A stretch of DNA of 64,000 nt from an uncultured Candidatus Peribacteria bacterium (GCA_964509975.1 CAZDZO010000002.1:10759-74758), one strand, 5' to 3'. Shown: positions 547 through 29,805, counted from the stretch's first letter. Numbers and translations are program-made. Notes: generated from the letters alone by a model not told the origin.

Positions 547-548
547 TC

Positions 549-2909: not shown

Positions 2910-2915
2910 CTCCTA

Positions 2916-2925: not shown

Positions 2926-2959
2926 AAATAACGCTAAAATACAAGAGTCCCCGAGATAA

Positions 2960-5476: not shown

Positions 5477-5513
5477 TCATTTTAGGTTATGTTTTCGTTA
5501 TTATACTGGAATC

Positions 5514-6403: not shown

Positions 6404-9400
6404 TTAAAGATTGTCAACTGTCTGAGTACTTTGTTTGAGATCGATGGGAGCATTCTCCCCCACTGAGATAGTAAAGCTTCCCAAAACAGAATCATCAGTA
6501 TTAAGAATCTCAAAAACAACAGGATCTGTTTCTCTTTTTGTTGCTTGAATTTGAAGACGAAGATTTCCATAAAAATCCCCTCTCCTATCAATGAGCGCGA
6601 GTGGTTGTCTTCCTTTCACTAAAACATTTCCCTCACTGGTTGCAGAGAAATAAATAGTGTCTTGTGTATTGCGATCAAGAACGTGTACCGCTGGTTCCAA
6701 TTCAAATACAAGTTCTTCTGTGTCGAGAACAACATCTTTTTCTCCAGGGATAACAAACGACACAATTGCCATGGGAGCATCTTGTTCATTCCGAAGCAAA
6801 ATTTGCGTAGGATGAATGTTATTGGCGGGGAGAACGGTAATATCAAAAAGATCGTTATAGAGAACAGGTCTTCCATTTTCCAATACCTCAAAGGCTTCTT
6901 CTCCTGTGAAATCCTTAATCTCAATTCCTCCACTGGTATCGAGTCCTGACAGATCAAAGTCTCCAGAATCATTTGTCACAATAGGTTCTTCACGAATCGA
7001 TTCCCAAACACCTCGTCTATTGCGTTCAACAGTAATAGGAATATCCGCAATACCTCCTCGTACTCCTCCTTTGACCTTACTCGATCGTACAGACGCTTCT
7101 TCTATTTTTGGAATAGGCGTTCGCACTATTACTTCAAGTTCTTCTGAGGCTCGATTTCCCGGTTCATCTTCTACATGCAACATAATGTTAAACGTACCTT
7201 CTTTTTCGTAGGCAGGGAGTTCTACTTTCAAAAGATCACGAGGTAGATAATATTTTTCTTCGTTTGGATCGGGAAAATCCTGATCATTGGTTGGGTCGCC
7301 ATCTTTATCCGCATCATAATGTGGATATAAATCCCACCAAACACGTTCAATATTGTGCTCGCTGTCTTTTGTTGGAGATGCGTCCACAAAGACTGGTTGA
7401 AAGGCAAGAGCGCTTATTTTTGATCCTCCCACAAGTGAAATATCTGGTGGCGTCACATCATCATCACCTTGTGGATCATGAAGATATTTTGAAACAAAGA
7501 AACTATCCCCTTCTTTGGTGAAAGCTTGAAACGCTCCATATTGATTCTTTTGCTTTAACAATTGAAAAGCTCGAATGAGTTCATCTTCTTCTTCAAAGAC
7601 ATATAATGTGTAATTTTCATTTGGATAAATAGTAATTTGTGTTTCATCAAAGAGTTCCAAAATTACTTGATCATTTGCCCCTAGTTCCATACGAGATCCA
7701 GAAGGCAAATAAGTATTGGCGCGTGGAGACACTTTTTCTGTTGTCATCATATCGATACGTTCCACATTTCCTCGAGTGAGACAAACTTCTCCGTATTCCA
7801 CAATGGTCTCTTCTCCTTTGTGAAGGACTTTTTCTTCAACCTGCTCTGGACGCCCTTCTCTGGGCGGTACACGAATTTCAAAACGAGAATAGTTATCAAT
7901 CCCTACAAGAAGCGATTCAGTTGCATAGAATGGCTTTTCTTTTTCTGGATTATCACAGTCTTTTTGTTTAAATCGCGGAATTGCCTCAGCAGGTGATGAG
8001 TAGAGAATTGGAGATCCTTTTATCCTTGTTATTTGTGTCGTCATAGGACGAATTTCATATCGTGTTGGAGCTGGTCGAAGTAAAAATGCGTGTCTATTCC
8101 ATTGTTCTGATTCTCTGTTGGAAAAATCCTCATCGTATTCAAAAATGAAATCTGGACGATCCGTTACTACCCATTCAAAGTAAGAAGTTCCATTTGAAAT
8201 TCGTTCAAACTGGAATGTTGTTCCTGTGGCCTCAAGGGAATCTTGAATCGCACGAGCCGGAGCAAATTTTTCGCGAAATGTTTCATAGTCCCACTCTGTA
8301 AAGTTTCCGAATCGATCATCATAATTGTCATCATGTTTTTGCTCATATTTCTTTTCCAAATCATCTTCATCGATATCCGGTGTTACTCGATATTTCAAAA
8401 ACAATTCACTTTCCAGTGCGAAGAGAACTTCTTCATTATGATCATCTCCCAAATCTGCAAAAGTATACGCCGTGAGATCATCCAACGGGAATCCTGTCAC
8501 GCTTTCTGATTCCCCTGTCTCTGGATTGAAATAATAGACATCTGGTTCTTGTTCGAAATCTGCAAGCTGTGCCGCTCTAAACGCATCCGTATCAAAGTCT
8601 GTTGGCGCTTCTGTCGGAATTGCCCCTACGTCTACAACAGAGGTCAACCATGTAGAAAATCGTTTTGGATTTATTGTTGAAAAGACATTTGTTTTAGGCT
8701 CGACTAATTGAGCCACCCATCGAGCAGAAGATTGGATCGTTGCCCACATTCGTTTTTCTGTACTTCCTTGCTCGATTCTTACTGGAGAAGGCATGGTTCC
8801 ATTTGCGACAATGGAATATTTCACTTCAGAAGTTTTGTAATTTTCCGGTTGATAAGAGAAAACGCCGGCGCCAGAAAAAGAACAATTATCTGGTGGTGGA
8901 GCTCCTCTCAGAATCTCCCCCAAAGATCCCACCAAGCATTCATCAAATTCCTGCAACACTTCTAAACTTTCATTTAAAATCTCAAAAATAAGTGTCGGTA
9001 ATTTGATGTGCGCTTCTACGGTAATCTCCACATCATCAATCTGTGGTACCTGTGGTGCATTAAGAGAAAATGATGGAAAGGTAAAATCGATACCCCACAA
9101 GAGAGTTCTGTTTGTAATTTGTTGCACATGTCCAGCGAGCGTGTTTTCCGGAATTGTGAGGAAATTCTGCACAATCAAACAAAATAGTTTGAGGAACATC
9201 TTGAGCAAATCAAAAATGGGTCGAATTGTCACAAATAAATCAGGTAATACGGGCGGATCAACAAGTACTGGCAGATTAGGAAGTTCCAGATTTGGTATCT
9301 GAATATTGACACTAATATCTGGCATTTTTGGCAGCACTGGAATAACCGGAAGTCCTGGTACATTTACTTGTAAATTCACCTCTGGTGGGGGTGGAATATC

Positions 9401-12400
9401 AGGATAGGCCATTTGCACCGGTTGGAGTTCTACTTCTGGAATAGGAAGCTCCAGCGAAATATCGATACGAGAGAAATCCATAAATATATCCGGCAATCGT
9501 GGAGCTGGAATAACGGGAAGTTTTATACTTCCCAAAAGAAGGTTAATCAAAACGGTTGTACTTGATCCTCGCTCTACAGAACAAGTCGGACAGTCTGCTT
9601 TGAAGTTTGTGAAAGCTTCTAAAAGAATACCAAAACTCGCAAAGAACTCTTTTATCTCTTCTTTAAATTGTTTCCATTTATCGATAGCGCGATCATTCGC
9701 CTCTAACCATTCAAAGACATACGTCTCAATTGCTTTTGCGTATTTCTCAAACTGTTTTCCAAGCTGCGTAATCTTTCCTTTTTCTTCATCATAAAGTTCG
9801 CGCATCATTTTTGGGAATTCTTCATAAGATTTGATGGCATCCCAGTTATTATCGAGAGCTTGAGCATTTTGTTCCACTGAAGAAATGAATTCATCAAAAG
9901 CCTCAATATTTTTAAGATACTTTTGACAACTTTCACTGGTCATTTGTCCTTTACAAGAAGATTGATAATCCGCCTTCGCTTCTTGCTTCTGTGTTTTATA
10001 TTTATCAGCTGCATCTTTCCAAGCTTGAATCTGCATCTTATATTTCACTACCTCGAGATTATCTCCATCGGCATTTTTCTTTGGAAATACGGGATAAGGG
10101 AAAGTATATCGTTTCGGAGTGACGGTTATCCAAGATTTTTGTTCGAGTTTTTTCCAAAGATTTCGTCCCAAAACTTCTGAATTTGGAGAAAATAATGGAG
10201 ATACTTCTTTGTCTTCTTGTTCTTTTTGTTCTTCCGATCGCATCTGTGGAAGCTTTGGTTTCCAAAGTTTTGGAGTTGGAAGTTTGATATTATTAAACTC
10301 GTCTTTTTGTGCATCGATCCAATCTTGTACGACTTCTGTCGCATGAATGGCTATATTGGATTTATATTTTTTAAAATCTGGTTTGAATTCGGATGGATTA
10401 AAATCATCAATTATATCGCGAAGTGAATCTTGTGTCTCACTGGATTGACCGCCTCCGCTACTATCTGACGGACAAGCGATACTTCCTAATGCCTGAAGAA
10501 TCGGAATATCAACTACAACACAATTTCCTAATGGATACTGTGTTACATCGCCAATCGCTGGAAGTAATCCACAAAATCCCAACGCTAAGTGTGCTGACGT
10601 TGTCGGCATCGTATAGAAACGGAAAACAGAGGATTGATAGGCTGTTGCTGGAGTGAAAGGAGGACAAAATCCTGCTGTAGCAACACAGGTTACCGGATCA
10701 ATTGTAAGTGCTGGTAATGGCGTTGGGAACTTTGGAAGACTGATAATAGCAAAAGGAGGCACATAAAGCGTTTGTTTTCCAGGAGCAAATGGCGGAATAG
10801 CAATTGAAGGGATTTTTGCCGCAAGCCCACATCCTCCACAACTCAAAAGTGACATCTTCACCTTTTGATTAATAATTCCAAATCCATCCCACGTGGGAGG
10901 AAGTTCATCTTCTCCATTTTCTCCCGTTCCCACACCTTTCCCCTCTCCGCCAGCCCCTTCATTTCCATTGGCACTTCCTGTTTTATAAAGATTCATATAT
11001 TTTTCTTTCGCCAGTGGTGTTGGGTCTGTTGGAGTTGTGATTGGCACTATCTTCTGCCCATGAGGAAATTCTGTTCCATTATGATTTGGCGTAGAAGAGA
11101 GATATTGAATCATTTGTTTCTCTCCATCTTGTTCCCATCCAATAAGGATATCATCTAATCCATCATTAATATCAAAATCAAATACCTCGAATTCTAACGG
11201 AGTTAGTTCTGCAACTGTCAGATTCCATGTCATGAACACTTCTACTCCAGAGGAAAGTCCTTCCTCTTTGAGATAGCCCCAAAGTTCCATATCATCAGGC
11301 ACTTCTTCACGGAACGCAATTTCTCCATTACAGCCATTACACACAAAGGAGTCTTTTACATACTCCATTCCCTGCATATGTGGAATAAGAAATTCGAAAT
11401 TCTCAAGAGCCATCTTTGGGGTAAAAGATACCCCTGCTTTTAGCGTATTTCCTTTTTGAAGTGGCCCCGTTTCTTCTTGTTCAAGTGTGAATTCTGCATC
11501 TATTTTCATTTGAAATGGGATTTCCAAAAACACTGTCTGGAAATCACCCTCTCCCAATATTTCTTCTGTCATAATCGCTAATTGCTCTTGTGACGTCTCT
11601 GCTCCTTGTAATGACTTTGTAATGTCCTCAAGCTTTTCTGTTGAAACCGGAACACTTCCAAAATTGAGATGCAGTCCCCCTTCTCCCAAATTCCGTTGGA
11701 AAGCATCTTCTGGAAGTTTCTCTTCACTCTGAAGAAATTTTATTGCTTTATCCGGAGTCTTCTCCGTAATATCCTCTTTAATTCCCTCATAAGATACAAA
11801 GATATTTTCAAGATTTGGAAATTTCTCTTGTTCAAGATAAATACGACGATTCCAATCCTGCTCTTTAGCAACTTCATATATTTCTTCTATAGGATCAAGT
11901 GTTGGCGCAAAACTTTCAATATGTTCCACGGGAGAGAATTTACCTACATTTTTCGTTCCCATTGCTGTCCAAAGGCTCTTTTCTTCATCTGCAAAAGTCA
12001 GATCATCTAAATATCGATCTCCGTTAAAATCTCCTACATAGATTTCTTTTATTTTTCCTTCAAACTCCCCCAAATCAACTTCTCCTTCTCTTGAGAACGT
12101 TCCATTTGTATTTTTGTGCAATAGCAACTTTCCTTCTCCATTCAACTGCAAGATGTCTACAAAATCATCATGGTCATTATCAACCAAAAGAACTTTGGAA
12201 ACGCCATCAGCAAAGCGAAGAAGCGGGCCTGTGTCACGAAAATTATCAATTTCACTATTCTCTTGATAGAGCGCAAATAAGGTGTCTCCCACCAAATTCA
12301 TGATATCGGGCACCCCATCGGCATTCAGATCTCCCACAAGAATTTGTTCTATCGATCCATCTGGACTTTTCCAAATTGGTTTTCCGATATCATCGGTTAA

Positions 12401-15400
12401 TCCATTATCTGAAGCAGTATTTGCGGTTGCCAAAGTGGCCGTAGGGTCTCCGAGCAAGATAAAGGCATCACTAGAATTCCATTTTGTCGAATCTCCTACC
12501 ATATTTCCTGCCGCAAAAAGAGCGGCTGGTTTCCAACTTTTTTTCCAAAGAATATCCGGATCATTCTGTACATCTTCGGCAGATAAATGAGGAGCTCCCA
12601 GCATCCGTGAAGGCGATTCTTCTTCGTTAGGATCAATAAGCACTAATCCACGATTGTCATTTGTTGATGCACCGGTAAAGGCTTCTGCTATTTGAATATC
12701 TTTGACTTCTATGATTACAAAAATTCCTTCTGACAAAGACGAAATCCTATTGAGGGATTCTACTTCAACAATACTTTCTTGTGGTGACACAACCGTAATT
12801 GTTCCTATTTTCTTTTTTCCCACTACAACGGTCGTCTCGAGGAAAGAATCTCCTTCAATAGTGAAAGTAGCGCCCCCTTGCACTAACTCAATCCCTCCAC
12901 TTGCGTGCACTGAAAACACATGATTTCCTTCAAGAAGTATACTGTCTCCTTCTCGTTTCAGGATATCAATTTGATCTTCTTCGGGCACAAAATAGACCCC
13001 CGGCAATGTCCCCTTCGCACGAGTCACGAAAAACTCTGCTGGTTCTTTGAATTTCACAAAGGCCTTTCCAAGTGATCGAATACTGTCTTTCAAATCAACT
13101 GTGTACAGGTTTTGTCCCGTACGCACCTCCGCTTCGATCTCTCCTGTAAAGTATCCATCCCCGGCCAGGTATCCAATACGTTTTTTTGCTTCTGGAGGAG
13201 TTATTAGTGTCCCCACCGCTTGAGACGATCCGGCAAAAAGAAAGGCACTCGCAATATTTTTATCCGTTAATAAATCTCCTCCATCAAATCCAAGGAGCAA
13301 AGAAAAGAGTGATTTCGGTCCGAGTTCTTCAATTTCTTCTGTAGTGAGATAATCAGTGACTGTAAATTCTATCGTTGAGGGCACAAGATTAGGTGCCTCG
13401 ACACTCATGAGTATCTTTCCAGTGCCTGTTCCCGACGGAGTAATTTCCAACGATCCTTCTCCTCTCAAAAGATTCAATGACCAGCCATTTTCTGTTTCGA
13501 GCAAACTCGTGTCAGGAGACGTCCCTGTTGCTCGAGCAGCCTCAGCAGCTTCTTCCAACGCCAATTGTGCTCCACTGGCTTCTGAAACCACACCCAGTTC
13601 CACAAGCGCATCTCGATCACTTGAAGTTACATTTCCCGGTTGGTTTGGCAATAAATATATCTTTTTATTAAATGTGGTATCAATATTTCCAAATTGATCA
13701 ACAACTGTCACATCAAGATTTATTTCTGCATTTTCATCTTCTCGATCCATTGTCACAGAATCGCTTGCCGTTAAGATTTTTACGGGATCATCTGGTGCTA
13801 CTTCGAGTTCCACCATGCCATTTTCAAATCCAGAACTGGTAAAAGACATTATTGTTTCTCCAGATTTTGTTCCTGCAAAAAAGGAAAAATCTCCAATCCC
13901 TTCTTTGAGCGTGAGGTTTTCTTGAAACTGTCCAATGCCTTCAGGATTCGCAAGCACCCCCACTTCTAAATCATAATTAATTCGCTTTCCTTCCTTTGTC
14001 TCAGCTCTGACGAATAATTCGAGCGGATTTTCTGCCCCCGCTTGTGTTTTTGTTTTTGGGGCTTCAATACGAAGAACCACTTTTTGTGGAACCTTGAATA
14101 TTTGTTTTTGTGAAATTTCTTCCAAAGGAAGCTTGAGAGAAACTGTTGTTTCTGCAAAAGGAAGTTTTTGTTCTGGACGCACAAATATTTTTGATTTCCC
14201 ACTTATCATTGGCATTTCAAATTGTTCAGGTGACGCAACATCACGTACCTCCAAATTATGAGTTGTCCACGTAAAGATGCCTTGCTCTGGAACATTATTT
14301 CCAAATACATCAATTGCTTGTGCCGTAAGAGGAACAAATTGAGAATCGTGCACAAGAATCTCTGTACGAGATTCAAGAACAATATCCGCAATTTCTCCCG
14401 GAAGAATTTTTATAGATTCTGTGACAATCGGAAGCAATCCTACGGTGTCTTTGAGTGTTATTTTGGCTTCTCCTGATCGAATCCCCGGATAAAAAATGAT
14501 TTCCGCCCGTCCATTTTTTATCGTTACATATCCTTTATTTCCAAAGGTTCCCCAGGCGGACTCAAAAAGCAACATACCACCATCTCGATTCTTGGAAGTA
14601 TATCCGTCGGGAGTCGTTATCTTGGCTTGAAGAAGCATTCCTTCTTTGTTATTTACCACCACACGCTCTTTTTCTGGAGAAAAAGAAAGTCCATATTTTG
14701 AGACATTTACCGGAATTGTCTGGAGAACTTTTCCGTCTGATTTCATTTTCATTTCAAACTTTCCTCCCACATCGTTGTCTTTGGGGAAAAGTGTAAAGAT
14801 CGCTTTACCTCCAATAACCGGTGCTTGCTCTCCTGGGAAAACATCAAAGAATTTTTGTCCATTGGAACTATCGAATTCCAATTCAATCGTCTGATCATCT
14901 CCTGATTGCACACTCGTGCCTGCTTTGTTTTTAAGATCTACTTCAAGAATCACGGGGCTCATATCACCGGCTGCCACGTTAATCTTCGGAGTGGAAACTT
15001 TGAGTGCGGTTACTTTTTCTCGAACATCTTTACTCTTATCGGAAGGAGGAATAACGGTAAATTCTTCTACTGACTGCTCATTAGAAGAAGATGATTCTTG
15101 TGAACTTTCATCAGAAGAACTTTCTTCTGAATTTTCAGAAGGAGGAGGGTCCGGCAGAACCGTAAACTTCTGCATCAAAAATGCTGGCAACCCCGTCAAC
15201 CATCCTAAAAAGCATGGAAACCAAGCAATGACATTTTTTCCGCTACATTGAGAAAGACTGCTTTTTTGACTTTCAAAATCAAAATTATTTTTCGCTTTTT
15301 CATGGAGATCTTTCACCTCCGCCCCATCATTAAAAGAGAACTGTGCTTCTTTCAATCGTGCGTCTTGAAAGGCTTCCCCATCGGGATCATCTCCTTGCTG

Positions 15401-17890: not shown

Positions 17891-17956
17891 GGGGAAAAAG
17901 TGGGGTTTTGTTTCCGCCCTATTGTGCTTTTTTTAAGCAAGAAATTCAAGTATTTT

Positions 17957-20900
17957 TTAAACAGTTCGCGCGTATTGTTTGAGTGCCTGTTCAATCGCTG
18001 TCGTATCACCAAAAAGTGTGACATTCACGTCTTCTTTTGTCATAAGTTCTTCAGAAAGAGAATTCATCATTGCATATTCACTCGTAGAGTCTTTCTTCGC
18101 CAAATCTTTTAATTGTTCTCCTGTGGCTCCATGATCGTATCCTTTGAAATCAAGTATTTTTTCATATTTTCTTTTTAATTCTTCATTTCCACTTTGATTA
18201 AACATAATGCGAGCAAATTTATTGACTTTTTCTTTATTTTCGAGCATTGCAAACGAATATCTCGTTTCTCCTTTTTCCCAACGATCTTTTCCAAAAATCA
18301 TTGGACGCGCATGATAAGAAGTAAAATTTCCCAATAAAGCTTGCATAAGTGTCATTCCAACTTTTAATCGTCCTCCTACCTCCATCAAAATACGCTCTTT
18401 TTCTTTTCTCCACCCAGGAGTTCCTCCAAATTCTTTATCTCCATTTTCGATGTATTCATTCATCATCTTCATGTAATTCGGGAATGAAGAAATAAATGTT
18501 CGCCAAAAATCGGGTGAATTCTTTTCCGTACCTTCTGATCGTTGTCCAAGCTGAGTCACGAGTTGTCGCTGATCCCACTCTAGGAAAAATGCCCAGGCAT
18601 CATCATGATCTCCTTCTTTGTCTGCAAACCGTTGCATTCGTTGCACACGATCGCGAGCAAATTCAGACATGTGAATATAGTGGAAGAAAAATCGTTCAAC
18701 CGTTGGTTCTGCATTTCGAGGATTAAAACTTCCTCCAGCACTTCCCATAAATTTCGCCCATTCTTCAAAATCACTTTGTTTCCAATCGCGCTTTTCTGCT
18801 CCTGGAAAATCTTCCGGAACAATTCGTCCTTTATATTTTGGAGAACCTTTGTCTGAGAAAAATTCCACATGTGGAAATCGCACCACAAATTCATCTCCAA
18901 AACTATTGAGCACATCTCGTGAAAGCAAAGTTTGTCCGGTACTCGGATTTCGCAACGTCATCCCTTGAATCAAGAAATAAAATCGTCCATCTGGATTCCC
19001 ATTCATTTTTCCTTTAATAAACGCCTGCTTAAGGAATCCTGCAAAACGCGCTGGATCACACTGTGCTGATTCTCCTCGCCCCCATCGCTGAAGCATTCCC
19101 GCCAAAATATCAAAACGAGCACTTCCATCATTTTCATACTTTCGGAAATCCTCTGCATATCCGTCTTGTGCTTTTTTTAAATTTCCTTCAAGCGATTTAT
19201 CCCAGTCATCAAAAATTTCTGTTGTCCAAATAATAGAGGCTGCTTGAGAAACCTTTTCTCGAATTTGATATGGTGTAAGCGACATATCTTCGTCAAGATT
19301 AAATTGCACCGTTCTCTGGAGTTTATTAAGAGCTCTCCAAAGAAGTGGATCATCCCATTTAAGATATCCTTTTTGACTTAGCAAATTAATACATGCACGC
19401 ACCTCATCTGGATTATTTGATCGACCAACGGCCGCCCAAATCTCCCATCCAGGACTGTCATGATATTGTGTTTGAAATTCTTTCATTCGAGCCGTCTCTG
19501 ATTCTTCTTGCATACGGTGAAATTCTTTTCCAAACCGATTATTCTTTCCCCAAAACCCACTTCCAATCTGTGCTACATTTCTGTCCGAATTCCGTTTCCA
19601 GTGCTTATTTGCCGCTTCAATAGAAGTTTTAAAGGTTAGATAGATGTCATACAAAGAAAATTCCTTTCTTTTTCCTCTTCTATTTGTTTTCTTTTTACTT
19701 TCATAATCTGCGAGCCATTCTTTAATTCCCGTCGCCTGACTTCCACAAGCCTTTGCAACTTCTGCAATTCCTTCAAGATTTCCAAACTCAATAAGGGCTT
19801 GATTTTTTTGTTCTGGATTTTCTGATCCCAGTCGAGACAACCATCCTTGGAAATACTCCTCATTCCCAAGACGCTCTCCCCAAACAAAGGAAAACTCATT
19901 TTTTTGTTCCTGATGTTGTGCAATAACATTAAGAGCTTGTGTTGGATCCATTCCATATTTTTCGTGGAAAGCATTTTCTGTATTTTTTCGAATATCTCTT
20001 TCTATAATTTCAATAACCTTATCAACATTTTCCTGATAAATTCTAAATTTCTCATTAAAATCATTTCGCACTCTTTTGAAATTTGTTTCAAATGTTTCTT
20101 TTCCCTCAAAATATCCATATTTTTTAACATTCGCGAGTCCAGCATTTGGTCCTACTTCTATATCGCGATTACTCCCATTTTCATCAGTTATTTGAATTGT
20201 GCCGCCAAGATCACTTTCGGAAGCTCTTGTTTTTTCTTCTGCAAGAATACCACTTCGAACATTCATTAAATTCCTGAGACCATCTAAACGTTCTCTTATG
20301 TCCAAAATATGACTTTCCTGCTCTAATCGCCCTGGCTCCTTTAATTGTTTAAAAAGCGTATCAACATCATCAACAACTTTTAAAATCTTTTCAAAATAGT
20401 TTTCTAGAAATGCTTTTTTTGGTGAGTCCGGACTTTGTGCATTAACGCCAAAAATGTCTTCTGCAATGTCTCTCATCAGAGAAACTTCTCCCAGAAGTTT
20501 GTATTTCATTCTTGTTTCCCAGTCATTTACAAATTCCCCCAAACTCTCGGTTATTTCCTCTTTTACAATTTTTGGATCAATGTCTTCTCTTCCTGTTGAA
20601 ACGCCTACCATTTCACTATGCAATACTTGCAAGGTGTCTTGCAAAAATTGTGTCGTTGTTTCTGTACGATTTGAAATTCTCAATGTTTGCAGTCCCAAGT
20701 TATTTAATTGTGTTCTTCCCGGTAAATAGACCTCTTCCTCTGTGCCAGGATCGGTAATTACATGGCCCTCCTGTGCCCATTCAACCCGAACCGGAAAAGT
20801 CTGTTCAAAAAGAAGTCGTTCACTCAGTGCGGTTTTTAAATTTTCTTTTATTTCTCCCTCTTCAAGTTCTTCTAGTACAATATCCAATAATTCTTCTATA

Positions 20901-23515
20901 CCATCTAAATCTTCTGGATTTTCTTTCTTTTTCTTTAAATACCCAGCGCCTTCTGGGTTGAGTACTCTTGTAACAAGTTGTTCTAATTTTTGCTGAACAG
21001 ATCCTTGCTCAGTAGAAGACAATCCCAAATCATATTGTTCGTTGAGTTCTCGAACATCTATTGAGGCAATATCATTGAGATGCACTGCAAGTGTCTTTTT
21101 TCCTACTTCCAAAAGATGCTTCGTGTGCTCTGATCCAGCAAGATAGTGATCTTGTGCTGTTTGTAGTGAGAGAAGATCTTCTTCAGTTTCAGCTGATCGA
21201 TACAGTGATTCTAATTCTACAAAGAACCGTTCTGATTGATCTTCTTTTTCTTCTTCCGTTCCTTCAAATTTATTTTTTAACTGATCAATAATATCTTCTT
21301 TGAAATGGCGAATCGCGCCTTCCAAAAGAATCGTTATCTCTTCTGGTGGCATTACAAGCTTCCCATCTATTCGATACTGATCAAGACTTATTCCAAATTC
21401 TCCCCCAAGCGCTTCTTTGAGTGCTGCATAGGTGAATTCCTCATAAATAGCTTTATACCATTCTTCGTAACTATCTTGTTCCAATCGTCGAGAACTAATA
21501 ACTTTCTCAATTCTTGTATTGAGTACTTGTTGAAATCTTTGACGAAAATCCACAAGTTTTCTTGGAATTTCAAAACCAGAAGGAACGCCCAATTCTGCTT
21601 TTTTATCCGCAGAGGCATTCTCAATCTTAAACAACAATTCATAATCAGCTGCTCGTAATTGATGAAGCTTAATTCTTTTTTGTAATCCTTCCCAAAAATT
21701 TTTACTTATTTCCTCTGCTTTCCCTTGAATATCCTGATAAAATTCTGCGAATCTATTATAACGACTATTTTCTTTTACCCGTTTTATCCAATCTTGTTCG
21801 AGCGTTCTTCGTTCTTCTTCAAGCTTTTTAATTTGTTCTTTATATTCTTCAGAAAAAGTGAATGTGTTTTTCACCACTTCAAAAGCTTTTTCGTATTTAT
21901 CCTGGGCCGTTACATATTCATTATATTCTGTTGTAAAAATCTTAAAGTACGAAAGTTTCTTTTCTTTCTCATTTCGAAATCCTTCAAATCGTGAAATATT
22001 ATTTTTTATTTCTTCAAAGAGACGTGATTCTTTTATGGTTTTTTCTTCCGGAGTAATTTCTTCATTATTTTTCAACGTTTCGTATTCTTCGTTTTGAGTC
22101 ACAAGAGAATCTTTAATGTTGGTAAATTCTGTTTTTAAATACTCATCTGGTTCCCCTCCCGTTTCTATTGTGGCAAACTCTGGAATCTTTGACTCAAATT
22201 CTGTAATAAAATCCCCGAGTCCCTCCAAGTGTCGTTTCACATTTTCTTGTTTTCCCTGTTTTTGTGTTTCTGCGTCTACAAATTTTTCAATATCTTCTTT
22301 TGCTTCTGGTGTTGATTCTGTTTCAGCTGCTTTTTTTCGAGCATCTTCAAGGGCTACTTTTTCAAGTCCTTCCAAACGAAATTTCAGTTTTGTTATTTCT
22401 TTTCGAAGTTTTTCTTGTTCTTTATCAATAAGAGGCTTTTCTTCTTTCCAGTCATACGTCGTTCTTGCCGTTTCTTCTTCGGTTTTTATGGCTTGTAGTG
22501 ATTTCTGATGTATATGAGAAAGCACGGGTTGTTTTTCTGCAAAGGCAAGTAATTGCACTTTGTTTCCGTGTCGAATGAATTTCTTTATTTCCTCTGCATG
22601 TGTAGCAAAGGATTCTCTCAAATCCTCACCACCTTCACCGCCTTCTAAGTTTTCTCGCAATAAATCAATAATTTCCCAAGCAAGAGAATATCTTGGTTTT
22701 TGCTTTTCTCTTTCATCACTTCCCAAAAGTCCTTTTACGGTATCTTGTGTGAGTTTTTTCCAATGAAGAGAAAGAACCTCTGTTCCCCAGTCAGAACTAT
22801 TGGGAAAAAGTGCTCGTATCTCAAGTAAGAGTAATTTCTCTGTAGGCGTAAGCGGTCTTTTTTCCTCTCCTTTTTGAAAGCTTACAATATCATTCACCCT
22901 ATCATGTGGATCTATTCCTGATCGAACCAAAAACATTTTCCCTCTTTCAAGAATTTTGTTTTTAGCTTCTACAAAGACTTGGTCTATTTTATTATTTCGT
23001 CTTTTTTTCTTGAGAATATTGTACAGAGAGCAAACACGCATAAGTTGAAAATCTGTCCACTGCCATACATCTTTTGAAAGAATATTTTGTAAATTTTTTC
23101 GTTCCGTAAGAAGTACTGTACTGAGAATCTGTCTCATTTCTGTTCCCAAAATTTTTCGCAATTTGGGAGAAGCATCTACCCAAGACAATATTCGTGGTGG
23201 AGCAAAATCAACTTTTGTCGTTGAAAGTGAAATATAATAATTCATTATATCTCGAAATTTTGCTTTTTGTTTATTATCCAAATTCGCTTGTTCCAATACC
23301 CGCAATGATTTAATAGAAAAAGCGAGTGGATCCTTTAGGATTTCATCAATCGTTCTTTCTTCTCGTTGTTCCACTGTCTCAGTGGTTTGCGATCTTGTTT
23401 CTGGGTTTGATGAAGTCGTTGTATCGTCTGTTGATTCGTCCATGAAGACAAACCGACCCCACTGGTCGGATTCAACATTTCGAAACGTATTGGTAATAAA
23501 CTTCATTTTGTCCAA
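17957..23515 (-). CDS. giant hypothetical protein (1,852 aa), no signal peptide, long E/K-rich coiled-coil region
   Basis: Uninterrupted 5.6-kb ORF. The listed start is TTG; an ATG (MKFITNTF) at 23506 lies 11 nt downstream of a TGgTATAAT box. The C-terminal 600 aa or so are aromatic-rich and look globular. No Walker or nuclease motifs seen. Confidence 0.8.
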   Translation of the reverse strand: MDKMKFITNTFRNVESDQWGRFVFMDESTDDTTTSSNPETRSQTTETVEQREERTIDEILKDPLAFSIKSLRVLEQANLDNKQKAKFRDIMNYYISLSTTKVDFAPPRILSWVDASPKLRKILGTEMRQILSTVLLTERKNLQNILSKDVWQWTDFQLMRVCSLYNILKKKRRNNKIDQVFVEAKNKILERGKMFLVRSGIDPHDRVNDIVSFQKGEEKRPLTPTEKLLLLEIRALFPNSSDWGTEVLSLHWKKLTQDTVKGLLGSDEREKQKPRYSLAWEIIDLLRENLEGGEGGEDLRESFATHAEEIKKFIRHGNKVQLLAFAEKQPVLSHIHQKSLQAIKTEEETARTTYDWKEEKPLIDKEQEKLRKEITKLKFRLEGLEKVALEDARKKAAETESTPEAKEDIEKFVDAETQKQGKQENVKRHLEGLGDFITEFESKIPEFATIETGGEPDEYLKTEFTNIKDSLVTQNEEYETLKNNEEITPEEKTIKESRLFEEIKNNISRFEGFRNEKEKKLSYFKIFTTEYNEYVTAQDKYEKAFEVVKNTFTFSEEYKEQIKKLEEERRTLEQDWIKRVKENSRYNRFAEFYQDIQGKAEEISKNFWEGLQKRIKLHQLRAADYELLFKIENASADKKAELGVPSGFEIPRKLVDFRQRFQQVLNTRIEKVISSRRLEQDSYEEWYKAIYEEFTYAALKEALGGEFGISLDQYRIDGKLVMPPEEITILLEGAIRHFKEDIIDQLKNKFEGTEEEKEDQSERFFVELESLYRSAETEEDLLSLQTAQDHYLAGSEHTKHLLEVGKKTLAVHLNDIASIDVRELNEQYDLGLSSTEQGSVQQKLEQLVTRVLNPEGAGYLKKKKENPEDLDGIEELLDIVLEELEEGEIKENLKTALSERLLFEQTFPVRVEWAQEGHVITDPGTEEEVYLPGRTQLNNLGLQTLRISNRTETTTQFLQDTLQVLHSEMVGVSTGREDIDPKIVKEEITESLGEFVNDWETRMKYKLLGEVSLMRDIAEDIFGVNAQSPDSPKKAFLENYFEKILKVVDDVDTLFKQLKEPGRLEQESHILDIRERLDGLRNLMNVRSGILAEEKTRASESDLGGTIQITDENGSNRDIEVGPNAGLANVKKYGYFEGKETFETNFKRVRNDFNEKFRIYQENVDKVIEIIERDIRKNTENAFHEKYGMDPTQALNVIAQHQEQKNEFSFVWGERLGNEEYFQGWLSRLGSENPEQKNQALIEFGNLEGIAEVAKACGSQATGIKEWLADYESKKKTNRRGKRKEFSLYDIYLTFKTSIEAANKHWKRNSDRNVAQIGSGFWGKNNRFGKEFHRMQEESETARMKEFQTQYHDSPGWEIWAAVGRSNNPDEVRACINLLSQKGYLKWDDPLLWRALNKLQRTVQFNLDEDMSLTPYQIREKVSQAASIIWTTEIFDDWDKSLEGNLKKAQDGYAEDFRKYENDGSARFDILAGMLQRWGRGESAQCDPARFAGFLKQAFIKGKMNGNPDGRFYFLIQGMTLRNPSTGQTLLSRDVLNSFGDEFVVRFPHVEFFSDKGSPKYKGRIVPEDFPGAEKRDWKQSDFEEWAKFMGSAGGSFNPRNAEPTVERFFFHYIHMSEFARDRVQRMQRFADKEGDHDDAWAFFLEWDQRQLVTQLGQRSEGTEKNSPDFWRTFISSFPNYMKMMNEYIENGDKEFGGTPGWRKEKERILMEVGGRLKVGMTLMQALLGNFTSYHARPMIFGKDRWEKGETRYSFAMLENKEKVNKFARIMFNQSGNEELKRKYEKILDFKGYDHGATGEQLKDLAKKDSTSEYAMMNSLSEELMTKEDVNVTLFGDTTAIEQALKQYARTV

Positions 23516-23517
23516 GT

Positions 23518-23526
23518 ATTATACCA
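23518..23526 (-). promoter_or_regulatory. extended -10 box (TGgTATAAT) upstream of the 1,852-aa gene
   Basis: Minus strand reads taTGgTATAATac-ttggacaaa-ATG. Confidence 0.4.
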
Positions 23527-23576
23527 TAAATAAGCCCTAAATGGAAGAATAAATCAGGAAGAAATTAAAGAGTTTT

Positions 23577-25703
23577 TTAGTCGTTGTTTTTTACAATTTC
23601 AAGTGTTTCTTTTTTGTTATCACCTTCTCCTGTTGTATTTCTGCTGAATTTATTCTTTTCTGCATAGCTTGCACTTTCAAGTTCTGTAAGGATTTCTTTT
23701 TCATTCTTTATAATCGCTTCTTTTATAGAGGTGTTTGTTGTTTCATTATAATATTTCTTAAGATCATCCAAATTCTTAAATTCTTGTGAAACACTTTTAT
23801 CTTCGTTATTTATGGTTATTTTTTTACCATCATCATCCGCTACTACTTCAATTTTATTTGTATCTGTTTTCTTTTTCCCTTCGTAATCAGAAGTTTTTGC
23901 ATTATTTCTTCCTCCTTGCTCAGCTATCCAAAGCAACGCTGTTTCCACTTTGTCTTCATTACCACTTGTAAAATTAGTCTTCATATTAGTATACCCCGCT
24001 AAACTTGAAACCTTAGGAAATTGCTTTTCAAGTTTTGCTATAACATTCTTTGATTCTGGAATATTTCCTGAGTAGAACTTTGATCCTTGTTCAGAATTAA
24101 CAGCTTTGTCATCTATCATTTTAAAAGCAGCCATTGCATCACTCGCTCCTTCTATGTTGGTTCCTAGTTCATTAAACGCCTTTGTTAATTCTGTTGTAGA
24201 TTTATTAAACATATTAATTCCATCTGGTCCGGTAAAGCCTTCATAATCTTTCGATATTTTATCCGAACGAAGTTTCACCATTCCTTGGTTGAGTGTTCTC
24301 ATTAACGTAGTAGTTGATACCCCTTGTACTCCTTTCTCCCCAGGCATTGGGAAAATCTCCCGATCGATTGTTCCAGCCTTCGCAAGAAACGCACCAGCCC
24401 CTTCTGCTCCTCCTTTAATCTTGTTAATAACGCCTTCGGCCACTGATCCTTCAAGTGCCCAAAAAGCGGCTTTCCAGAACACTACAATCGTAGCAATAGA
24501 CCACAAAAGTCCATATCCACTCGCGCCAAATGTCGATACTGAAGAACCCGTTCTTATAAAGTCTCCACTCGGTCCTCCTCCAAGATTTACCATCGCATCT
24601 ATCATTAAGAAACTCACGGCAAATGCTGCTGCAATCTTGAGTGGCATAACCACACTTGTCACAACCATTTCACTAATTTTCCCACCGCTTCCTTTTCCAA
24701 ACCCCATTATTGATCCCGCAATAAGAAGTGGTGAAAATACCATCGCAATCCAGAGCACCACCATCCGAACGAGAAGAGCAATAAATACCGCTGCCAAAGC
24801 AATCACTTGCGCCAAAGATAAAATACTCACAAACAGCACACTCGTGAATACATCGCCCCAATCGTTCAATCTCGCCGTAAGAGAGGGCATGTCTTGAATT
24901 CGATTGAACTGGATTCCGAAAGCAATAAAAAGGTTCTGTGCGGCTTTGCTTTTTGAGCTCGAATCGGCCGCATTCTGTGGATCAATGGCAAAAAGACAAT
25001 CTTCTGGAAGTGCCGCTGACCCTTTTACTTTTGTATCTTTGTCTCTTATTTCTGTTACTGGATCTTCCCATTTCCCTTTTCCACACATAAGATCATTAAT
25101 CGCTACAAAGAACGGTTCATAACTCACAACCCCATCTTTATTCACGGCTACATCATTTTTCAAAGCATCTTGAAGACCAGCTTGCCCCTTTGCTCTTGCG
25201 GTACTATCCGGAATCGCAAATATAGTAATCGCTCCAACATGCACAGCATCCAAAACAACTTTAAATCCTAAAAGTGAAAAGTTAATAGCAATCAGTGCCA
25301 AAATAACATTCGGAAGTTGTTTTTTTATAGTCCAATTTCCATCCCCTCCTTTAAAAGAAGAAAATAAGTTTGAAAATGCCAAGAAAATTAATACCAATAC
25401 AAAGAGTGCATTCGTAATATTTCGAATAATCACCCACATTGGTCGAATCGCAGCCATTGGTTCTGGAGCCGTCAAAAAATCCGTTCCCACCAAATCCCCT
25501 CCATAATTGATAAAAACCAAAGAAAGAAACGTAAAAATATTTACAAAAACCGAAAAAATCTGTGCAAACGCTTTCAATGTCTCATTATCATTCCCATCTG
25601 TTAGCGCAAAAGCCACATCAGGACTCACGAATTGCCCCACTACGAGCGCTATAATAAGCGCTACAACAGTTTTTGGAGAAATGAGTTTTCGTAAAAATTT
25701 CAT
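23577..25703 (-). CDS. polytopic membrane protein (708 aa) with signal peptide, large external loop and hydrophilic C-terminal tail
   Basis: Signal-like N-terminus (VVALIIALVVGQFVSPDVAFA), at least 8 hydrophobic helices in two blocks, and a K/E/N-rich tail. The topology resembles VirB6/TrbL-type proteins (weak inference). Confidence 0.8.
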   Translation of the reverse strand: MKFLRKLISPKTVVALIIALVVGQFVSPDVAFALTDGNDNETLKAFAQIFSVFVNIFTFLSLVFINYGGDLVGTDFLTAPEPMAAIRPMWVIIRNITNALFVLVLIFLAFSNLFSSFKGGDGNWTIKKQLPNVILALIAINFSLLGFKVVLDAVHVGAITIFAIPDSTARAKGQAGLQDALKNDVAVNKDGVVSYEPFFVAINDLMCGKGKWEDPVTEIRDKDTKVKGSAALPEDCLFAIDPQNAADSSSKSKAAQNLFIAFGIQFNRIQDMPSLTARLNDWGDVFTSVLFVSILSLAQVIALAAVFIALLVRMVVLWIAMVFSPLLIAGSIMGFGKGSGGKISEMVVTSVVMPLKIAAAFAVSFLMIDAMVNLGGGPSGDFIRTGSSVSTFGASGYGLLWSIATIVVFWKAAFWALEGSVAEGVINKIKGGAEGAGAFLAKAGTIDREIFPMPGEKGVQGVSTTTLMRTLNQGMVKLRSDKISKDYEGFTGPDGINMFNKSTTELTKAFNELGTNIEGASDAMAAFKMIDDKAVNSEQGSKFYSGNIPESKNVIAKLEKQFPKVSSLAGYTNMKTNFTSGNEDKVETALLWIAEQGGRNNAKTSDYEGKKKTDTNKIEVVADDDGKKITINNEDKSVSQEFKNLDDLKKYYNETTNTSIKEAIIKNEKEILTELESASYAEKNKFSRNTTGEGDNKKETLEIVKNND

Positions 25704-25723
25704 AAATGTGTATCAATCTCCTA

Positions 25724-25732
25724 ATTATACCA
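25724..25732 (-). promoter_or_regulatory. extended -10 box (TGgTATAAT) upstream of the 708-aa gene
   Basis: Minus strand reads taTGgTATAAT-taggagattgatacacattt-ATG. Confidence 0.4.
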
Positions 25733-25784
25733 TAAAATACACATTAAAACAAGTAATTCTCCCTGTTGAATCCCTTCTTTTTCT

Positions 25785-28238
25785 CTATGTTGTCGGGGTT
25801 TCCGATGTAACTGATCCATACAACACTTCCAACAAACTCTTTATTTGTGTCAATAATTGATCTTTTCTTTCTCCATTCGTTTTCGGAAGAGATTTATAAA
25901 TTTTAATTTCATTCTCGTGAACCCCAAGTGTTTCTAAGTGCTCATAGATAACCTTTTTTTCACCCACAAAATCCGCCATAATATCCTGCCATTCCGTTTT
26001 TAGTGACCCCACAAAGTGTGGTTCCCAGAACTCTTTCAACATATCCCCTTCTATATTTTTTGACTTAATAAGTTTCAAGGCCTTCACTTTTGGACGTGTA
26101 CTTTTGAATTCCTCATATTTCACACTCATATTTTTAAGATGATCGAAATATTCTAGAGAGTTTTTTCTTTTTATTGTTTTTTCTTTTTCATTCTTTTCAT
26201 CAAGTGTTCCAATACTGAGTCCTCGTTTCCCAATGTCATCCTTGTCTACACAATTCCAAAACGCATTTTGGATTTCTTGTGTTGATTTGAAATCATTTCC
26301 AACATTTTTCCCCACAAAGACCTGATTCTTCATTTCCATCACGATTTTTTTCCATTTTTTGTTATCGACGATTTCCTCAAGAGATTTTCGTTCAGAAGCG
26401 TGAATAACTCCCATTCCAAAGAGGGCCCCACAAATACTTTTCCAATTCTTGGGTTTCATATCTTCGGCATTTTTATTCATTAATTTCAAGAACGTTGATC
26501 GTGCTGCTTTTTTATTTTTTTCTAATTTTTCTTTTGATTTTTTAAAGACTGACTTCGTTTTCTCCCAAGTCTCTTTCCTAAAAAGTTTTTGTAATCCTCT
26601 TGAAGCAAATACAGTCCCATATACCGCGAACATTCCAACACAAAGCGCTATCAAAATATCTTCTAGTCCCCCATCCGACATAAAGGAAGCAATTCCTTCT
26701 TTTCCTTTTTGTGCGAGCTTATTCTTAATATCTGGATAGATATTTTCCATTTTTTCTTTGAGTTCTTGTTGTATTTCCTCTGGTAATTGTCCTTTTCGTC
26801 GATGCTGTTGTTCTTTCCATTTCCGAGCAAACGCTTTTGCAAACTCATCTCGCTCTGTTTTACTTGAGTGAATCATAAAGTAATTCCATGCTAACACTGC
26901 TTCTCTGGAAGCAAGTGTACGCTTTATAAATTCAATCATTTCAGCATCCCATTCATCAAACTTTGCATGCGGTCCTCGTGTCATCTTTGCAATTCTTCCT
27001 TGTTGTTCTTTTGTGAGATTTTTATTCAAAAGAAGCATTTCCGGATCGAACATTTCTACACAAAACTGAGCCGCTCGTTGACATTGATCAGGAGAAAGTG
27101 CTTCTTCTTCTCTTTCCTCTTCTGTTGTAGGAAGACGCAAAAATCGCTTATGCATTCTCCCATCAATCATGTCGACCTCTTCCCCATTCGCATCTTTCAT
27201 TTTTAGTTTCGGGCGTTCTGTTTCACCTGTATAAAATTTTTCGGTGATTTCTTCGCGCCTTTCATTGACAAACGTTTTTCCATCAAGGAGTGGTCCATCT
27301 TCTAAGCTCAGAAGATCCTTTAAGCTCAATTCATCCATCTTTCCTTCTCTATCAAGAATCATTCCCATATCTCCTCGTGCAATTCCGGTAAGGAGGTGTG
27401 TTATTTTTGTAAAAACATAGTTTAAAGCTTGTCCAGAAATATCAAGTATCTCATCCCCTACTTTAAAAATCCCTTCTGCAGCTCCTGGCAAAAGCCCTGC
27501 AACAACCGCAAACGTTCCTCCGACAACCCACATGTGAGGATTTGCCGCTCCATAAAAAAGTCCCGTAATATACGCAGAAGTCAATCCTGCTCCAAGACTG
27601 TTTCCTATTCGATCAGAAACACTTTGTTCTGAAGCCCAAGCATTCTCGCTAACCCTTCCAATCCATCCTCCTGTTTTTTGGAAGATGTTTTCATGTTTTG
27701 TTGCTGTAGCAAGCAGTTTTTGGTGAAGTGTCTCTCTAAATTGTCTTTGTCCTTCTGGCGGCAACGTTTTCACATGCTCTGTAATCCATTTCTTTACCGC
27801 TATGGGATCGCTTGAATTGGCATATTTTTTTCCTCCGTATTCTTCTACCAGTTTCTTGTTAAGATCTTCGTCGAGTTTTTTAAAATCAGGTTCTGTTTTT
27901 TGAAATTCTTCTCGGTATTTTGCAAAAACGGCTTCTGTTCTGTCTGGTGATTTTTCCGCAACGGTTGCTCGCATTCGATCAGAGTCTGCGATGATTTCTG
28001 CTGCTGTCACATATTTTTCTTTACTTTCTACGTCTGTTTTTACATCTTCTGTTTCTTTGCGCACTTCGGTCTTGGTATGCAATTTATCCATCATATGATC
28101 CACTGATCCTTCCGCTATTTCAATCGTCTGTGAATTTTGTTCTACGGTTTTATTGAACACAAACTTCGTTTCACCACTTCCCGCAAGGTGCAAGTGCGCC
28201 CCTGTTGGTAATGATGTGAATGAAGTATTTTCTTTCAT
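25785..28238 (-). CDS. hypothetical membrane protein (817 aa) with glycine-zipper-like TM hairpin
   Basis: Charged N-terminal 200 aa. Gly/Ala-rich helices (LGAGLTSAYITGLFYGAANPHMWVVGGTFAVVAGLLPGAAEG, about 27450-27630). A further TM (ILIALCVGMFAVYGTVFA) and a K/E-rich remainder. Confidence 0.8.
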   Translation of the reverse strand: MKENTSFTSLPTGAHLHLAGSGETKFVFNKTVEQNSQTIEIAEGSVDHMMDKLHTKTEVRKETEDVKTDVESKEKYVTAAEIIADSDRMRATVAEKSPDRTEAVFAKYREEFQKTEPDFKKLDEDLNKKLVEEYGGKKYANSSDPIAVKKWITEHVKTLPPEGQRQFRETLHQKLLATATKHENIFQKTGGWIGRVSENAWASEQSVSDRIGNSLGAGLTSAYITGLFYGAANPHMWVVGGTFAVVAGLLPGAAEGIFKVGDEILDISGQALNYVFTKITHLLTGIARGDMGMILDREGKMDELSLKDLLSLEDGPLLDGKTFVNERREEITEKFYTGETERPKLKMKDANGEEVDMIDGRMHKRFLRLPTTEEEREEEALSPDQCQRAAQFCVEMFDPEMLLLNKNLTKEQQGRIAKMTRGPHAKFDEWDAEMIEFIKRTLASREAVLAWNYFMIHSSKTERDEFAKAFARKWKEQQHRRKGQLPEEIQQELKEKMENIYPDIKNKLAQKGKEGIASFMSDGGLEDILIALCVGMFAVYGTVFASRGLQKLFRKETWEKTKSVFKKSKEKLEKNKKAARSTFLKLMNKNAEDMKPKNWKSICGALFGMGVIHASERKSLEEIVDNKKWKKIVMEMKNQVFVGKNVGNDFKSTQEIQNAFWNCVDKDDIGKRGLSIGTLDEKNEKEKTIKRKNSLEYFDHLKNMSVKYEEFKSTRPKVKALKLIKSKNIEGDMLKEFWEPHFVGSLKTEWQDIMADFVGEKKVIYEHLETLGVHENEIKIYKSLPKTNGERKDQLLTQIKSLLEVLYGSVTSETPTT

Positions 28239-28244
28239 AAAAAT

Positions 28245-28748
28245 TTAGAGTTTTAATGCTCTGATCCAGAGATCAATTAAACTTTCCTTTTTTTCTAAAA
28301 GTTCTTCTAACTTTGTTGATTGAAATTCTGTTCGAAAAAAGTCAGGATCTTTGTCCCCCATTTGAAGTGCGATTTGTCTATCCCCTTTTCCGGAAATTTG
28401 CAGATTAAGAACACTCACTGTCTGATCATATACAAACCAATATCCTTCAAATTTTTCCATTGGAAAGTATTTCTGATCGATAAGAATACCTTTCTCAAAC
28501 ACCATTACTTCATGCTCTTGGTCTCCGTTGCGATGAACCAAAAAATAAACGGCTACCGCTAGGAAAAGGGCAAAAGCCATAATCCAATCCCCTTTTGTCA
28601 GAGCCCAAATAGCACTTCCAAAAAAAACTACACAAAACATGGCAATCCATTTCCATCCTCGTTTGTGCGGATGGTAATTAAGCGCTGTCCAGGAGAAAAC
28701 TTGCTCTCCGGTGATCATTTCTACGGAACGTTCTGGTGTATTGGTCAT
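28245..28748 (-). CDS. small 2-TM membrane protein with C-terminal soluble domain
   Basis: The ATG at 28748 (MTNTPERS) lies downstream of a TGgTATAAT box at 28773-28781, which sits inside the longer listed ORF. The stop is 6 nt before the 817-aa gene ATG. The bPH-like topology is only an inference. Confidence 0.65.
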   Translation of the reverse strand: MTNTPERSVEMITGEQVFSWTALNYHPHKRGWKWIAMFCVVFFGSAIWALTKGDWIMAFALFLAVAVYFLVHRNGDQEHEVMVFEKGILIDQKYFPMEKFEGYWFVYDQTVSVLNLQISGKGDRQIALQMGDKDPDFFRTEFQSTKLEELLEKKESLIDLWIRALKL

Positions 28749-28772
28749 GAAATTTAAATTCAAAATCAGAGA

Positions 28773-28781
28773 ATTATACCA
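28773..28781 (-). promoter_or_regulatory. extended -10 box heading the giant-gene cluster
   Basis: Minus strand TGgTATAATTCTCTGATTTT. The same 20-mer recurs at 47040-47059 (+) and, 17/20, at 60941-60960 (-). Confidence 0.45.
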
Positions 28782-28838
28782 TAGATAAAAGGAAAACACA
28801 AGGGTTTGGGCCGCTTATTTTCGTTGTTATTCTGTTGA

Positions 28839-29777: not shown

Positions 29778-29784
29778 CTCAGAG

Positions 29785-29790
29785 AGTATA
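29785..29790 (-). promoter_or_regulatory. -10 box (TATACT) 7 nt upstream of the nucleotidyltransferase ATG
   Basis: Minus strand reads cttATACT... as TATACT-ctctgag-ATG. Confidence 0.35.
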
Positions 29791-29805
29791 AGAATTTTTT
29801 GCATT

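Follow-up and report, generated by a model that had tools for sequence, protein, structure and literature searches.

What is made by a block of five co-directional genes that includes two giant open reading frames (ORFs), and none of whose products rises above threshold in Pfam, NCBIfam or PHROGs? The block occupies positions 6404-28799 in a 64,000-nucleotide (nt) stretch of DNA (the window) from an uncultured Candidatus Peribacteria bacterium (GCA_964509975.1, CAZDZO010000002.1:10759-74758). An earlier note on this DNA had proposed that the five genes form a functionally linked, uncharacterised envelope or surface set, a large coding investment for a reduced genome from the candidate phyla radiation (CPR), and this proposal is upheld by a gene order kept in about 30 species-level genomes. 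We go one step further. With a probability of roughly one in two, the block is a conserved chromosomal envelope module of the Gracilibacteria/Peribacteria class that derives from a type IV secretion system (T4SS) and works with new partners; judging from the sequences, it probably builds a cell-contact apparatus.

Read along the minus strand, the block begins with g184, the gene of a small membrane protein, which extends over 28245-28799 (-) if it starts at GTG (184 codons) or over 28245-28748 (-) if it starts at ATG 28748 (167 codons). It is followed by g817 at 25785-28238 (-), encoding 817 amino acids (aa), g708 at 23577-25703 (-), encoding 708 aa, g1852 at 17957-23515 (-), encoding 1,852 aa from a TTG, and the giant g3828 at 6404-17890 (-), encoding 3,828 aa. 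The likely true start of g1852 is ATG 23506, which yields a protein of 1,849 aa. Gaps between the five genes are 6, 81, about 61-70 and 66 nt, and public contigs with identical proteins carry gene calls of 167, 817, 708, 1,849 and 3,817 aa. All five ORFs lie where the earlier note had placed them, and hydropathy supports the topology it had described: a hairpin of two transmembrane helices in the small protein, a polytopic 708-aa protein, a signal-less 1,852-aa protein and a giant with an N-terminal signal. Between 2319 and 35594, all ORFs that reach 150 aa and are not overlapped by a larger one are on the minus strand; because this whole stretch of about 33 kb runs in one direction, co-directionality alone is uninformative. 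It is the synteny across species that raises the block above chance.

Conservation of gene order was the test that the earlier note itself had named, and the locus passes it. A scan of GTDB species genomes identified at least 28 species-level loci with a homologue of g708, and contig look-ups added more; matches to the family hidden Markov models (HMMs) were counted among non-redundant loci with enough flanking sequence. A g184 homologue lies upstream of the g708 homologue in 24 of 28 loci, a protein at the second position stands between the two in 22 of 28, a g1852-like gene follows directly downstream of the g708 homologue in 17 of 21, and a g3828-like giant comes after g1852 in 10 of the 16 loci that are long enough. 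The order g184, position-2 protein, g708 and g1852-like gene thus recurs in about 30 species-level genomes, distant lineages included. Scanning metagenomes added only seven loci, all seven with the same arrangement. The order is kept across four flanking contexts: dnaE and an NTP-transferase (the window and L004), a rhomboid protein (L005), rpsF-ssb (L036 and L037) and a P-type ATPase (L033 and L042). Even in the distant loci L036 and L037, jackhmmer still recognises g184, g708 and g1852; no link to g817 could be made for the two proteins in the middle of these loci.

The giant is less constant. The distant loci L036 and L042 have none next to the module, nor does L033; in L037 the contig ends about 0.5 kb past the g1852-like gene, and that remainder contains no giant. 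Other exceptions are L007, where the giant precedes the g708 homologue, and L015 and L025, which have no adjacent g1852. The conserved unit is therefore the set of g184, the position-2 protein, g708 and g1852, and the giant is a frequent but non-universal addition in Peribacteria-type lineages. The five-gene unit of the earlier note stands for its first four genes and gives way for the fifth. As a single cluster the block is linked by synteny; its internal promoters, described below, suggest three transcription units and not one operon. We found no published description of this gene cluster in the literature.

The first connection to a known machine comes from g708. This protein has a signal peptide (ending in AFA), about seven long transmembrane helices according to hydropathy and an AlphaFold2 model, a Cys-containing outer loop (two nearly invariant Cys residues at 172-250) and a soluble C-terminal extension of about 260 aa. 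One of its homologues is called "type IV secretion system protein" at NCBI. When 5.8 billion proteins were searched with a profile built from 30 family members, the matches extended past the family itself to a protein that we call P0215 (E 2.3e-11) and to three proteins with a precomputed PF19590 (TrbL_3) assignment (E 8.3e-6). P0215 in turn has a weak Pfam TrbL match (E 0.0025), which covers precisely the part aligned with g708. One of the TrbL_3 matches, P0218, is located in a canonical CPR T4SS locus (L039). When the g708 family was compared with these TrbL_3-type proteins by hhalign, single sequences gave a probability of 96%, and a small TrbL_3 alignment gave 98.9% (E 2e-17, 247 columns, residues 85-420). 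The reverse search agreed: an HMM of Saccharibacterial TrbL_3 proteins had g708 as its sole match among 339 ORFs of the window (E 1e-12), and in the loci it recovered every g708 homologue and otherwise only its two source proteins and the ORF of P0215. On this sequence evidence, g708 is a remote, reciprocal homologue and a divergent member of the TrbL_3/VirB6 superfamily, with the transmembrane core at about 85-420.

Several features of g708 fit this assignment. Members of the superfamily are expected to have at least five transmembrane helices and a large extracytoplasmic loop, and g708 has both. Like VirB6/TrwI of R388 (PDB 7o3v, 8rt9) and Pfam TrbL (PF04610), it is a polytopic inner-membrane protein; its helices are long and it has a central outer loop. 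To PF04610 the link is transitive, via P0215. It differs from the R388 protein in being about 2.5 times longer and in having a cleavable signal peptide and a C-terminal domain. In a phylum-wide survey, VirB6 homologues were "scarce or absent" in Gracilibacteria, "suggesting extreme sequence divergence" (PMC12102498), and g708 is a good candidate for the VirB6 missing from this group.

The second connection comes from g184 and from the same T4SS locus. L039 contains seven T4SS_pilin genes, two TrbL_3 proteins, PrgI, a TraC-like protein, VirB4, VanY and SLT, beside dnaN/dnaA. Its VirB4 falls in the same 90%-identity cluster as a Candidatus Nanosynbacter protein, and the locus was assigned to Candidatus Nanosynbacter on this basis. 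A 172-aa unannotated protein encoded there (L039 411-926 (+)), whose gene starts 36 nt after a T4SS pilin gene, matches the g184 HMM over its full length (hmmsearch E 8.8e-17; hhalign 97.6%). Members of the g184 family have a conserved N-terminal W..A..Y...RG.W motif, the transmembrane hairpin, a C-terminal domain of about 95 aa and a conserved ...D.WIRxxKL end, and the Nanosynbacter protein shares W..A, RG.W, the hairpin and the C-terminal IRxxKL. By sequence, then, g184 belongs to a CPR-wide family of small membrane proteins that is adjacent to a pilin gene in Nanosynbacter. Both of its termini are predicted to be cytoplasmic, because positively charged residues precede the first transmembrane helix. 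An identification of g184 as VirB3/PrgI was rejected, hhalign being negative. As a separate observation, patescibacterial T4SS or pilin loci may have in the g184 family an accessory that has gone unrecognised.

Since g708 is of TrbL_3/VirB6 type and the g184 homologue lies beside a pilin gene, the block has a tie to type IV secretion, though it falls well short of a complete T4SS. The earlier note had seen no hallmark of a named machine. The block is indeed no complete T4SS and passes no database threshold, but g708 and g184 do have relatives. Compared with the Nanosynbacter system, which is related to the monoderm MPF-FATA type (PMC12102498), the block shares the transmembrane core of the two TrbL_3/VirB6-like proteins (in g708) and a homologue of the pilin-adjacent 172-aa protein (g184). 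Both loci are chromosomal, stand among core genes and have no relaxase, and in both the VirB6-like proteins are "extended", with a transmembrane core and a long soluble C-terminus. The block differs in having g817, g1852 and g3828 in place of VirB4, PrgI, the TraC-like/TrsD protein, the pilin array, VanY and SLT. When the g184, g817, g708 and g1852 families were each compared by hhalign with every protein of the Nanosynbacter locus, all comparisons were negative except g708 with TrbL_3 and g184 with the 172-aa protein.

Another extended VirB6-like protein is TcpH of pCW3, from monoderm conjugation. TcpH resembles g708 in having an N-terminal domain of several transmembrane helices and a large cytoplasmic C-terminal domain, and its gene, like g708, is preceded by genes for a small membrane protein and a protein of about 800 aa. 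The 800-aa neighbour in pCW3 is TcpF, an ATPase of VirB4 type; g817, by contrast, lacks a conserved P-loop.

In two of the loci, genes of T4SS type lie near the module. L033 encodes a genuine VirB4 at 2-1669 (-) (JAACPJ010000002.1), with a phmmer E value of 1.3e-116 to the Nanosynbacter VirB4 and the Walker A motif AKSGAGKS; it is 5.5 kb upstream of the module, encoded by the opposite strand and separated from it by genes for a P-type ATPase, a TrmB-like regulator and a 453-aa protein. L005 encodes, at 1-5749 (CBFIAK010000001.1), a 1,215-aa protein that combines T4SS_pilin (PF18895) with PKD repeats, and a 731-aa protein of PKD repeats only, both just upstream of the module with a rhomboid protease gene between. 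Such pilin-adhesin fusions may be of interest in their own right.

Among the partners, g817 evolves fast. It is rich in K and E, with two weak hydrophobic segments at about 205-255 and 528-546. The size of the position-2 ORF ranges from 550 to 940 aa across loci; phmmer connects 15 of 22 position-equivalents of g817, and the one from L042 was connected via hhalign (98.8%). Such fast evolution fits an interacting or exposed protein. Comparison of g817 with the T4SS proteins of the Nanosynbacter locus (hhalign) revealed no similarity. A degenerate VirB4 was considered and rejected, because the single Walker-like motif of g817, GPLLDGKT, is not conserved in its homologues. This motif is also the one exception to the absence of hallmark motifs described in the earlier note, which otherwise holds; none of the five proteins has a conserved Walker A.

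The large cytoplasmic protein g1852 has neither a transmembrane segment nor a signal by hydropathy. Its N-terminal part of about 1,140 aa is E/K-rich, helical and variable, and only the C-terminal part of about 700 aa (17960-20101 (-), residues 1139-1852) is conserved in the family, with a peak at residues 1300-1700. An exhaustive HMMER search of 1.84 billion representative proteins assigned 389 clusters at 50% identity to the C-terminal family at E<=0.001, and 67 at E<=1e-30; they include a distant group of 1,000-1,450-aa proteins with a common core of about 400 aa. A word-indexed search with the C-terminal 714 aa returned no match, not even the query itself, which looks like a limitation of the index. 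Pfam found no domain in 32 distant family members, and PDB matches of the family profile in the N-terminal region were coiled-coil-type noise only, which is the sole support for the coiled coil that the earlier note had ascribed to g1852. In general, PDB sequence and profile searches with g708, g817, g1852, g3828 and g184 returned nothing, or coiled-coil noise only.

From an alignment of 41 sequences, AlphaFold2 gave a confident all-helical model of the g1852 C-terminal domain (predicted local distance difference test, pLDDT, 88.7; predicted template modelling score, pTM, 0.74). Foldseek with this model against PDB and BFVD retrieved nothing at E<=0.001, the top TM-scores of about 0.1-0.2 belonging to generic helical-repeat proteins. 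The domain thus represents a large conserved all-helical family without a known relative. Near-invariant in it are R485, D498, D500, D501 and several Trp residues; with the consensus H499 these form an R..DHDD motif, which in sequence hints at a binding or catalytic site. A hidden T4SS component was also considered for g1852 and rejected, hhalign against all Nanosynbacter T4SS proteins being negative.

The giant g3828 begins with a classical N-terminal Sec signal, KKRLAVLLIGVLLMPIFSPPAQA. Its best-conserved part, residues about 90-850 (15341-17623 (-)), has invariant P187, L657, H660, E662, P663, T667, W770 and others. In 12 homologues, Pfam reported Invasin_D3 (three proteins, best E 1.3e-6), FG-GAP_3 (three), the immunoglobulin-like (Ig-like) GH2_C5 (three) and Big_1 (two); these Ig-like and FG-GAP matches are below or near threshold. 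g3828 itself has only FG-GAP_3 (E 1.4e-4; residues 1906-1962, 12005-12175 (-)) and TIG (E 0.016), both below the Pfam cut-offs. The earlier note had described adhesin-type repeats in the giant, and this description goes further than the data allow: self-BLAST detects no internal repeats, and the Ig-like and FG-GAP matches are sub-threshold. Neither an LPXTG motif nor a C-terminal transmembrane or hydrophobic segment was seen in g3828. Its sequence agrees with a large exported protein, probably fibre- or adhesin-like. In the related predator Vampirococcus, membrane proteins of giant size have been noted, with a proposed role in attaching to the host (PMC8080830). Like the giants of Vampirococcus/Absconditabacteria (PMC8080830) and the PrgB-type surface adhesins of monoderm T4SSs, g3828 is large and exported, with Ig-like or integrin-like modules and a putative part in cell-cell contact. 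It differs in having neither LPXTG nor internal repeats, in the absence of detected homology to PrgB, and in its own conserved N-terminal domain of 760 aa. The motif pair LIGDVPLP ... GGDxxPEIWHGVIR in the best-conserved part may recall the N-terminal part of peptidase C25 (gingipain) domains, a likeness that no tool result supports.

A mechanism may be drawn from these parts. Like VirB6, g708 would oligomerise in the cytoplasmic membrane and form a platform or channel, joined in the membrane by g184, with both predicted termini in the cytoplasm, and by the fast-evolving g817. The signal-less g1852 would dock on the cytoplasmic face via its conserved C-terminal domain, and its N-terminus, long, variable and helical, would serve as a scaffold or spacer. 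Exported by Sec, g3828 would be held at the outer face of the platform and project as a host-contact element. A VirB4 ATPase and pilins encoded elsewhere in the genome may energise transfer through the platform. In Gracilibacteria, VirB3/TrsD is not clustered with virB4, and VirB4 is carried with dispersed accessory genes (PMC12102498).

A bolder version, which we offer tentatively as a possibility, is that the four-gene core is an unrecognised class-wide machine made of a VirB6-derived channel and a cytoplasmic DHDD protein of new fold, a possible enzyme or gate, supplemented in many lineages by a giant host-binding fibre and operating without the usual VirB4/VirB3 partners. If true, the four-gene core would have branched off from type IV secretion as a line of its own, serving episymbiotic contact or uptake.

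Several observations weigh against derivation from a T4SS. The block and the 64-kb window contain no VirB4, type IV coupling protein (T4CP), PrgI/VirB3, TraC-like protein, pilin or cell-wall hydrolase of such a system; jackhmmer with the Nanosynbacter VirB4 found nothing in the window, the pilin HMM (PF18895) had no match there, and no relaxase was seen in the block. Nothing in the Nanosynbacter T4SS locus corresponds to g1852, g817 or g3828. The proximity of VirB4 in L033 and of pilin in L005 to the module are single cases, which could be chance in genomes of about 1 Mb. For g708 itself, neither the protein nor 25 homologues have a direct Pfam TrbL-type match at E<=0.1, NCBIfam reported nothing for the same 25 homologues, and the strongest sequence match spans mainly two transmembrane helices (residues 89-161). 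No similarity to TcpH of pCW3 (sequence from NC_010937) was seen by hhalign, and tblastn of g708 against 72,556 plasmids matched no plasmid-encoded protein. The AlphaFold2 model of g708 is moderate only (pLDDT 64); the TrwI/VirB6 chains 7o3v_J, 8rt9_F and 8rtd_L have the best target TM-scores in its Foldseek search (0.32-0.40), at non-significant E values of 2-6. Finally, we infer all contacts between the proteins, the oligomeric state in which they occur, that the giant stays attached at the surface, and any function in transfer.

These points feed the main rival explanation, in which a VirB6-like fold was co-opted independently of any T4SS. Here g708 would be an anchor or platform, the giant a fibre and g1852 its cytoplasmic anchor, together forming an attachment organelle without ATPase and without transfer. 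The absence of an ATPase or any other T4SS gene from the block and the window is what this scenario expects, and so are core partners (g1852 and g817) without T4SS counterparts; the ordinary Sec signal of the giant means that no special exporter is needed, and a role in attaching to the host has been proposed for the giant surface proteins of the related Vampirococcus (PMC8080830). However, L036, L042 and L033 keep the four-gene core without an adjacent giant, so the core does not serve the giant solely, and the g184 homologue adjoins a T4SS pilin in Nanosynbacter. We regard such co-option as doubtful but serious, and the present data cannot separate it from a module coupled to type IV secretion.

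An unlikely explanation is that the block encodes a housekeeping envelope complex, for example in membrane or lipid homeostasis, division or shape, which is essential for the cell itself and unrelated to host contact. In favour of it, one locus per species-level genome was recovered in at least 28 species, among core genes such as dnaE, secA, rpsF and ssb, and the C-terminal family of g1852 is broad, with its 389 clusters. But the sole detectable homologies point to proteins of T4SS type, very fast evolution marks both the position-2 protein and the N-terminus of g1852, as is more typical of host-interaction proteins, and the giant has Ig-like and FG-GAP signals.

Very little speaks for the idea that the block was left behind, or carried in, by a mobile element, conjugative or other, that had integrated. 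Conjugative elements typically encode VirB6-type proteins, and two NTP_transferase paralogues flank the block; however, no relaxase, integrase, T4CP or repeats were seen in it, GC content is uniform, the plasmid collection has no match, and the distant species represented by L004 has the same flanks (PilT-like, dnaE, NTP_transferase). That the five are unrelated co-directional genes and merely fortuitous neighbours, as the minus-strand orientation of the entire 33-kb stretch and the internal promoters would allow, is refuted by an order kept in about 30 species-level genomes and four flanking contexts, and has next to no probability left.

For the T4SS-derived module that we prefer, the interest lies in its hosts. 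CPR bacteria account for a large share of bacterial diversity and are host-dependent, and their contact machinery is known genetically in Saccharibacteria only, as an essential T4SS; in one Saccharibacterium, T4SS genes are essential for epibiotic growth (PMC12102498). The block offers a strong VirB6 candidate for Gracilibacteria, accompanied by three protein families that lack annotation; one of these comprises hundreds of sequence clusters and has a confident model without a solved-structure match. It provides targets in the few cultured relatives (Vampirococcus, Absconditicoccus), and annotation handles for "hypothetical" genes in many metagenome-assembled genomes.

The closest relatives of g708 come from metagenome-assembled genomes labelled Candidatus Peribacteria, Gracilibacteria or Altimarinota. 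Genetic code 25 was considered and rejected, since code 11 leaves the ORFs of the window and of the loci checked intact; the window belongs to a code-11 member of the Peribacteria/Gracilibacteria class of CPR bacteria. Upstream of the block are genes for a PilT-like ATPase, dnaE, a 324-aa secreted protein and an NTP-transferase; downstream are a second NTP-transferase, a small membrane protein, an Na/H exchanger and a TPR protein, and secA, gyrB and mltG are farther off in the window. The two NTP_transferase (sugar-nucleotidyltransferase) paralogues that bracket the block lie at 28839-29804 (-) and 5514-6377 (-), and in the distant locus L004 an NTP_transferase is likewise upstream of the module. 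The 324-aa protein (29848-30822 (-)) is E/K-rich, has a signal peptide and is kept in the closest relatives only. The PilT-like T2SSE ATPase (356 aa, 34524-35594 (-)) is directly upstream of dnaE and divergent from secA; the PilT-dnaE arrangement recurs in L003 and L004, with no link to the block shown. A 453-aa M23 peptidase is encoded at 61012-62373 (-).

The three internal TGgTATAAT boxes reported by the earlier note, all of the form TGGTATAAT, are exactly where it had placed them, directly upstream of g184, g708 and g1852. The first, an extended -10 box at 28773-28781 (-), is 24 nt upstream of the ATG of the small membrane-protein gene, the 167-codon start being thus downstream of the box. 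The second, at 25724-25732 (-), is 20 nt upstream of the g708 ATG and is followed by a TAGGAG ribosome-binding-like site. The third, at 23518-23526 (-), is 11 nt upstream of ATG 23506, which leaves a very short leader. Our search agreed with the note that the block contains no convincing internal terminator. Because of these promoters, the block looks like three tightly packed transcription units and not one strict operon. In the whole window TGGTATAAT occurs six times, compared with 1.9 expected, and all six copies are intergenic; the others are at 2916-2924 (-), 60952-60960 (-) and 47040-47048 (+). Every match to TGNTATAAT in the window (six of six) reads TGGTATAAT. Five of the six boxes precede a same-strand start codon by only 6-24 nt, and this suggests that extended -10 promoters with very short or absent leaders are a general trait of this genome.

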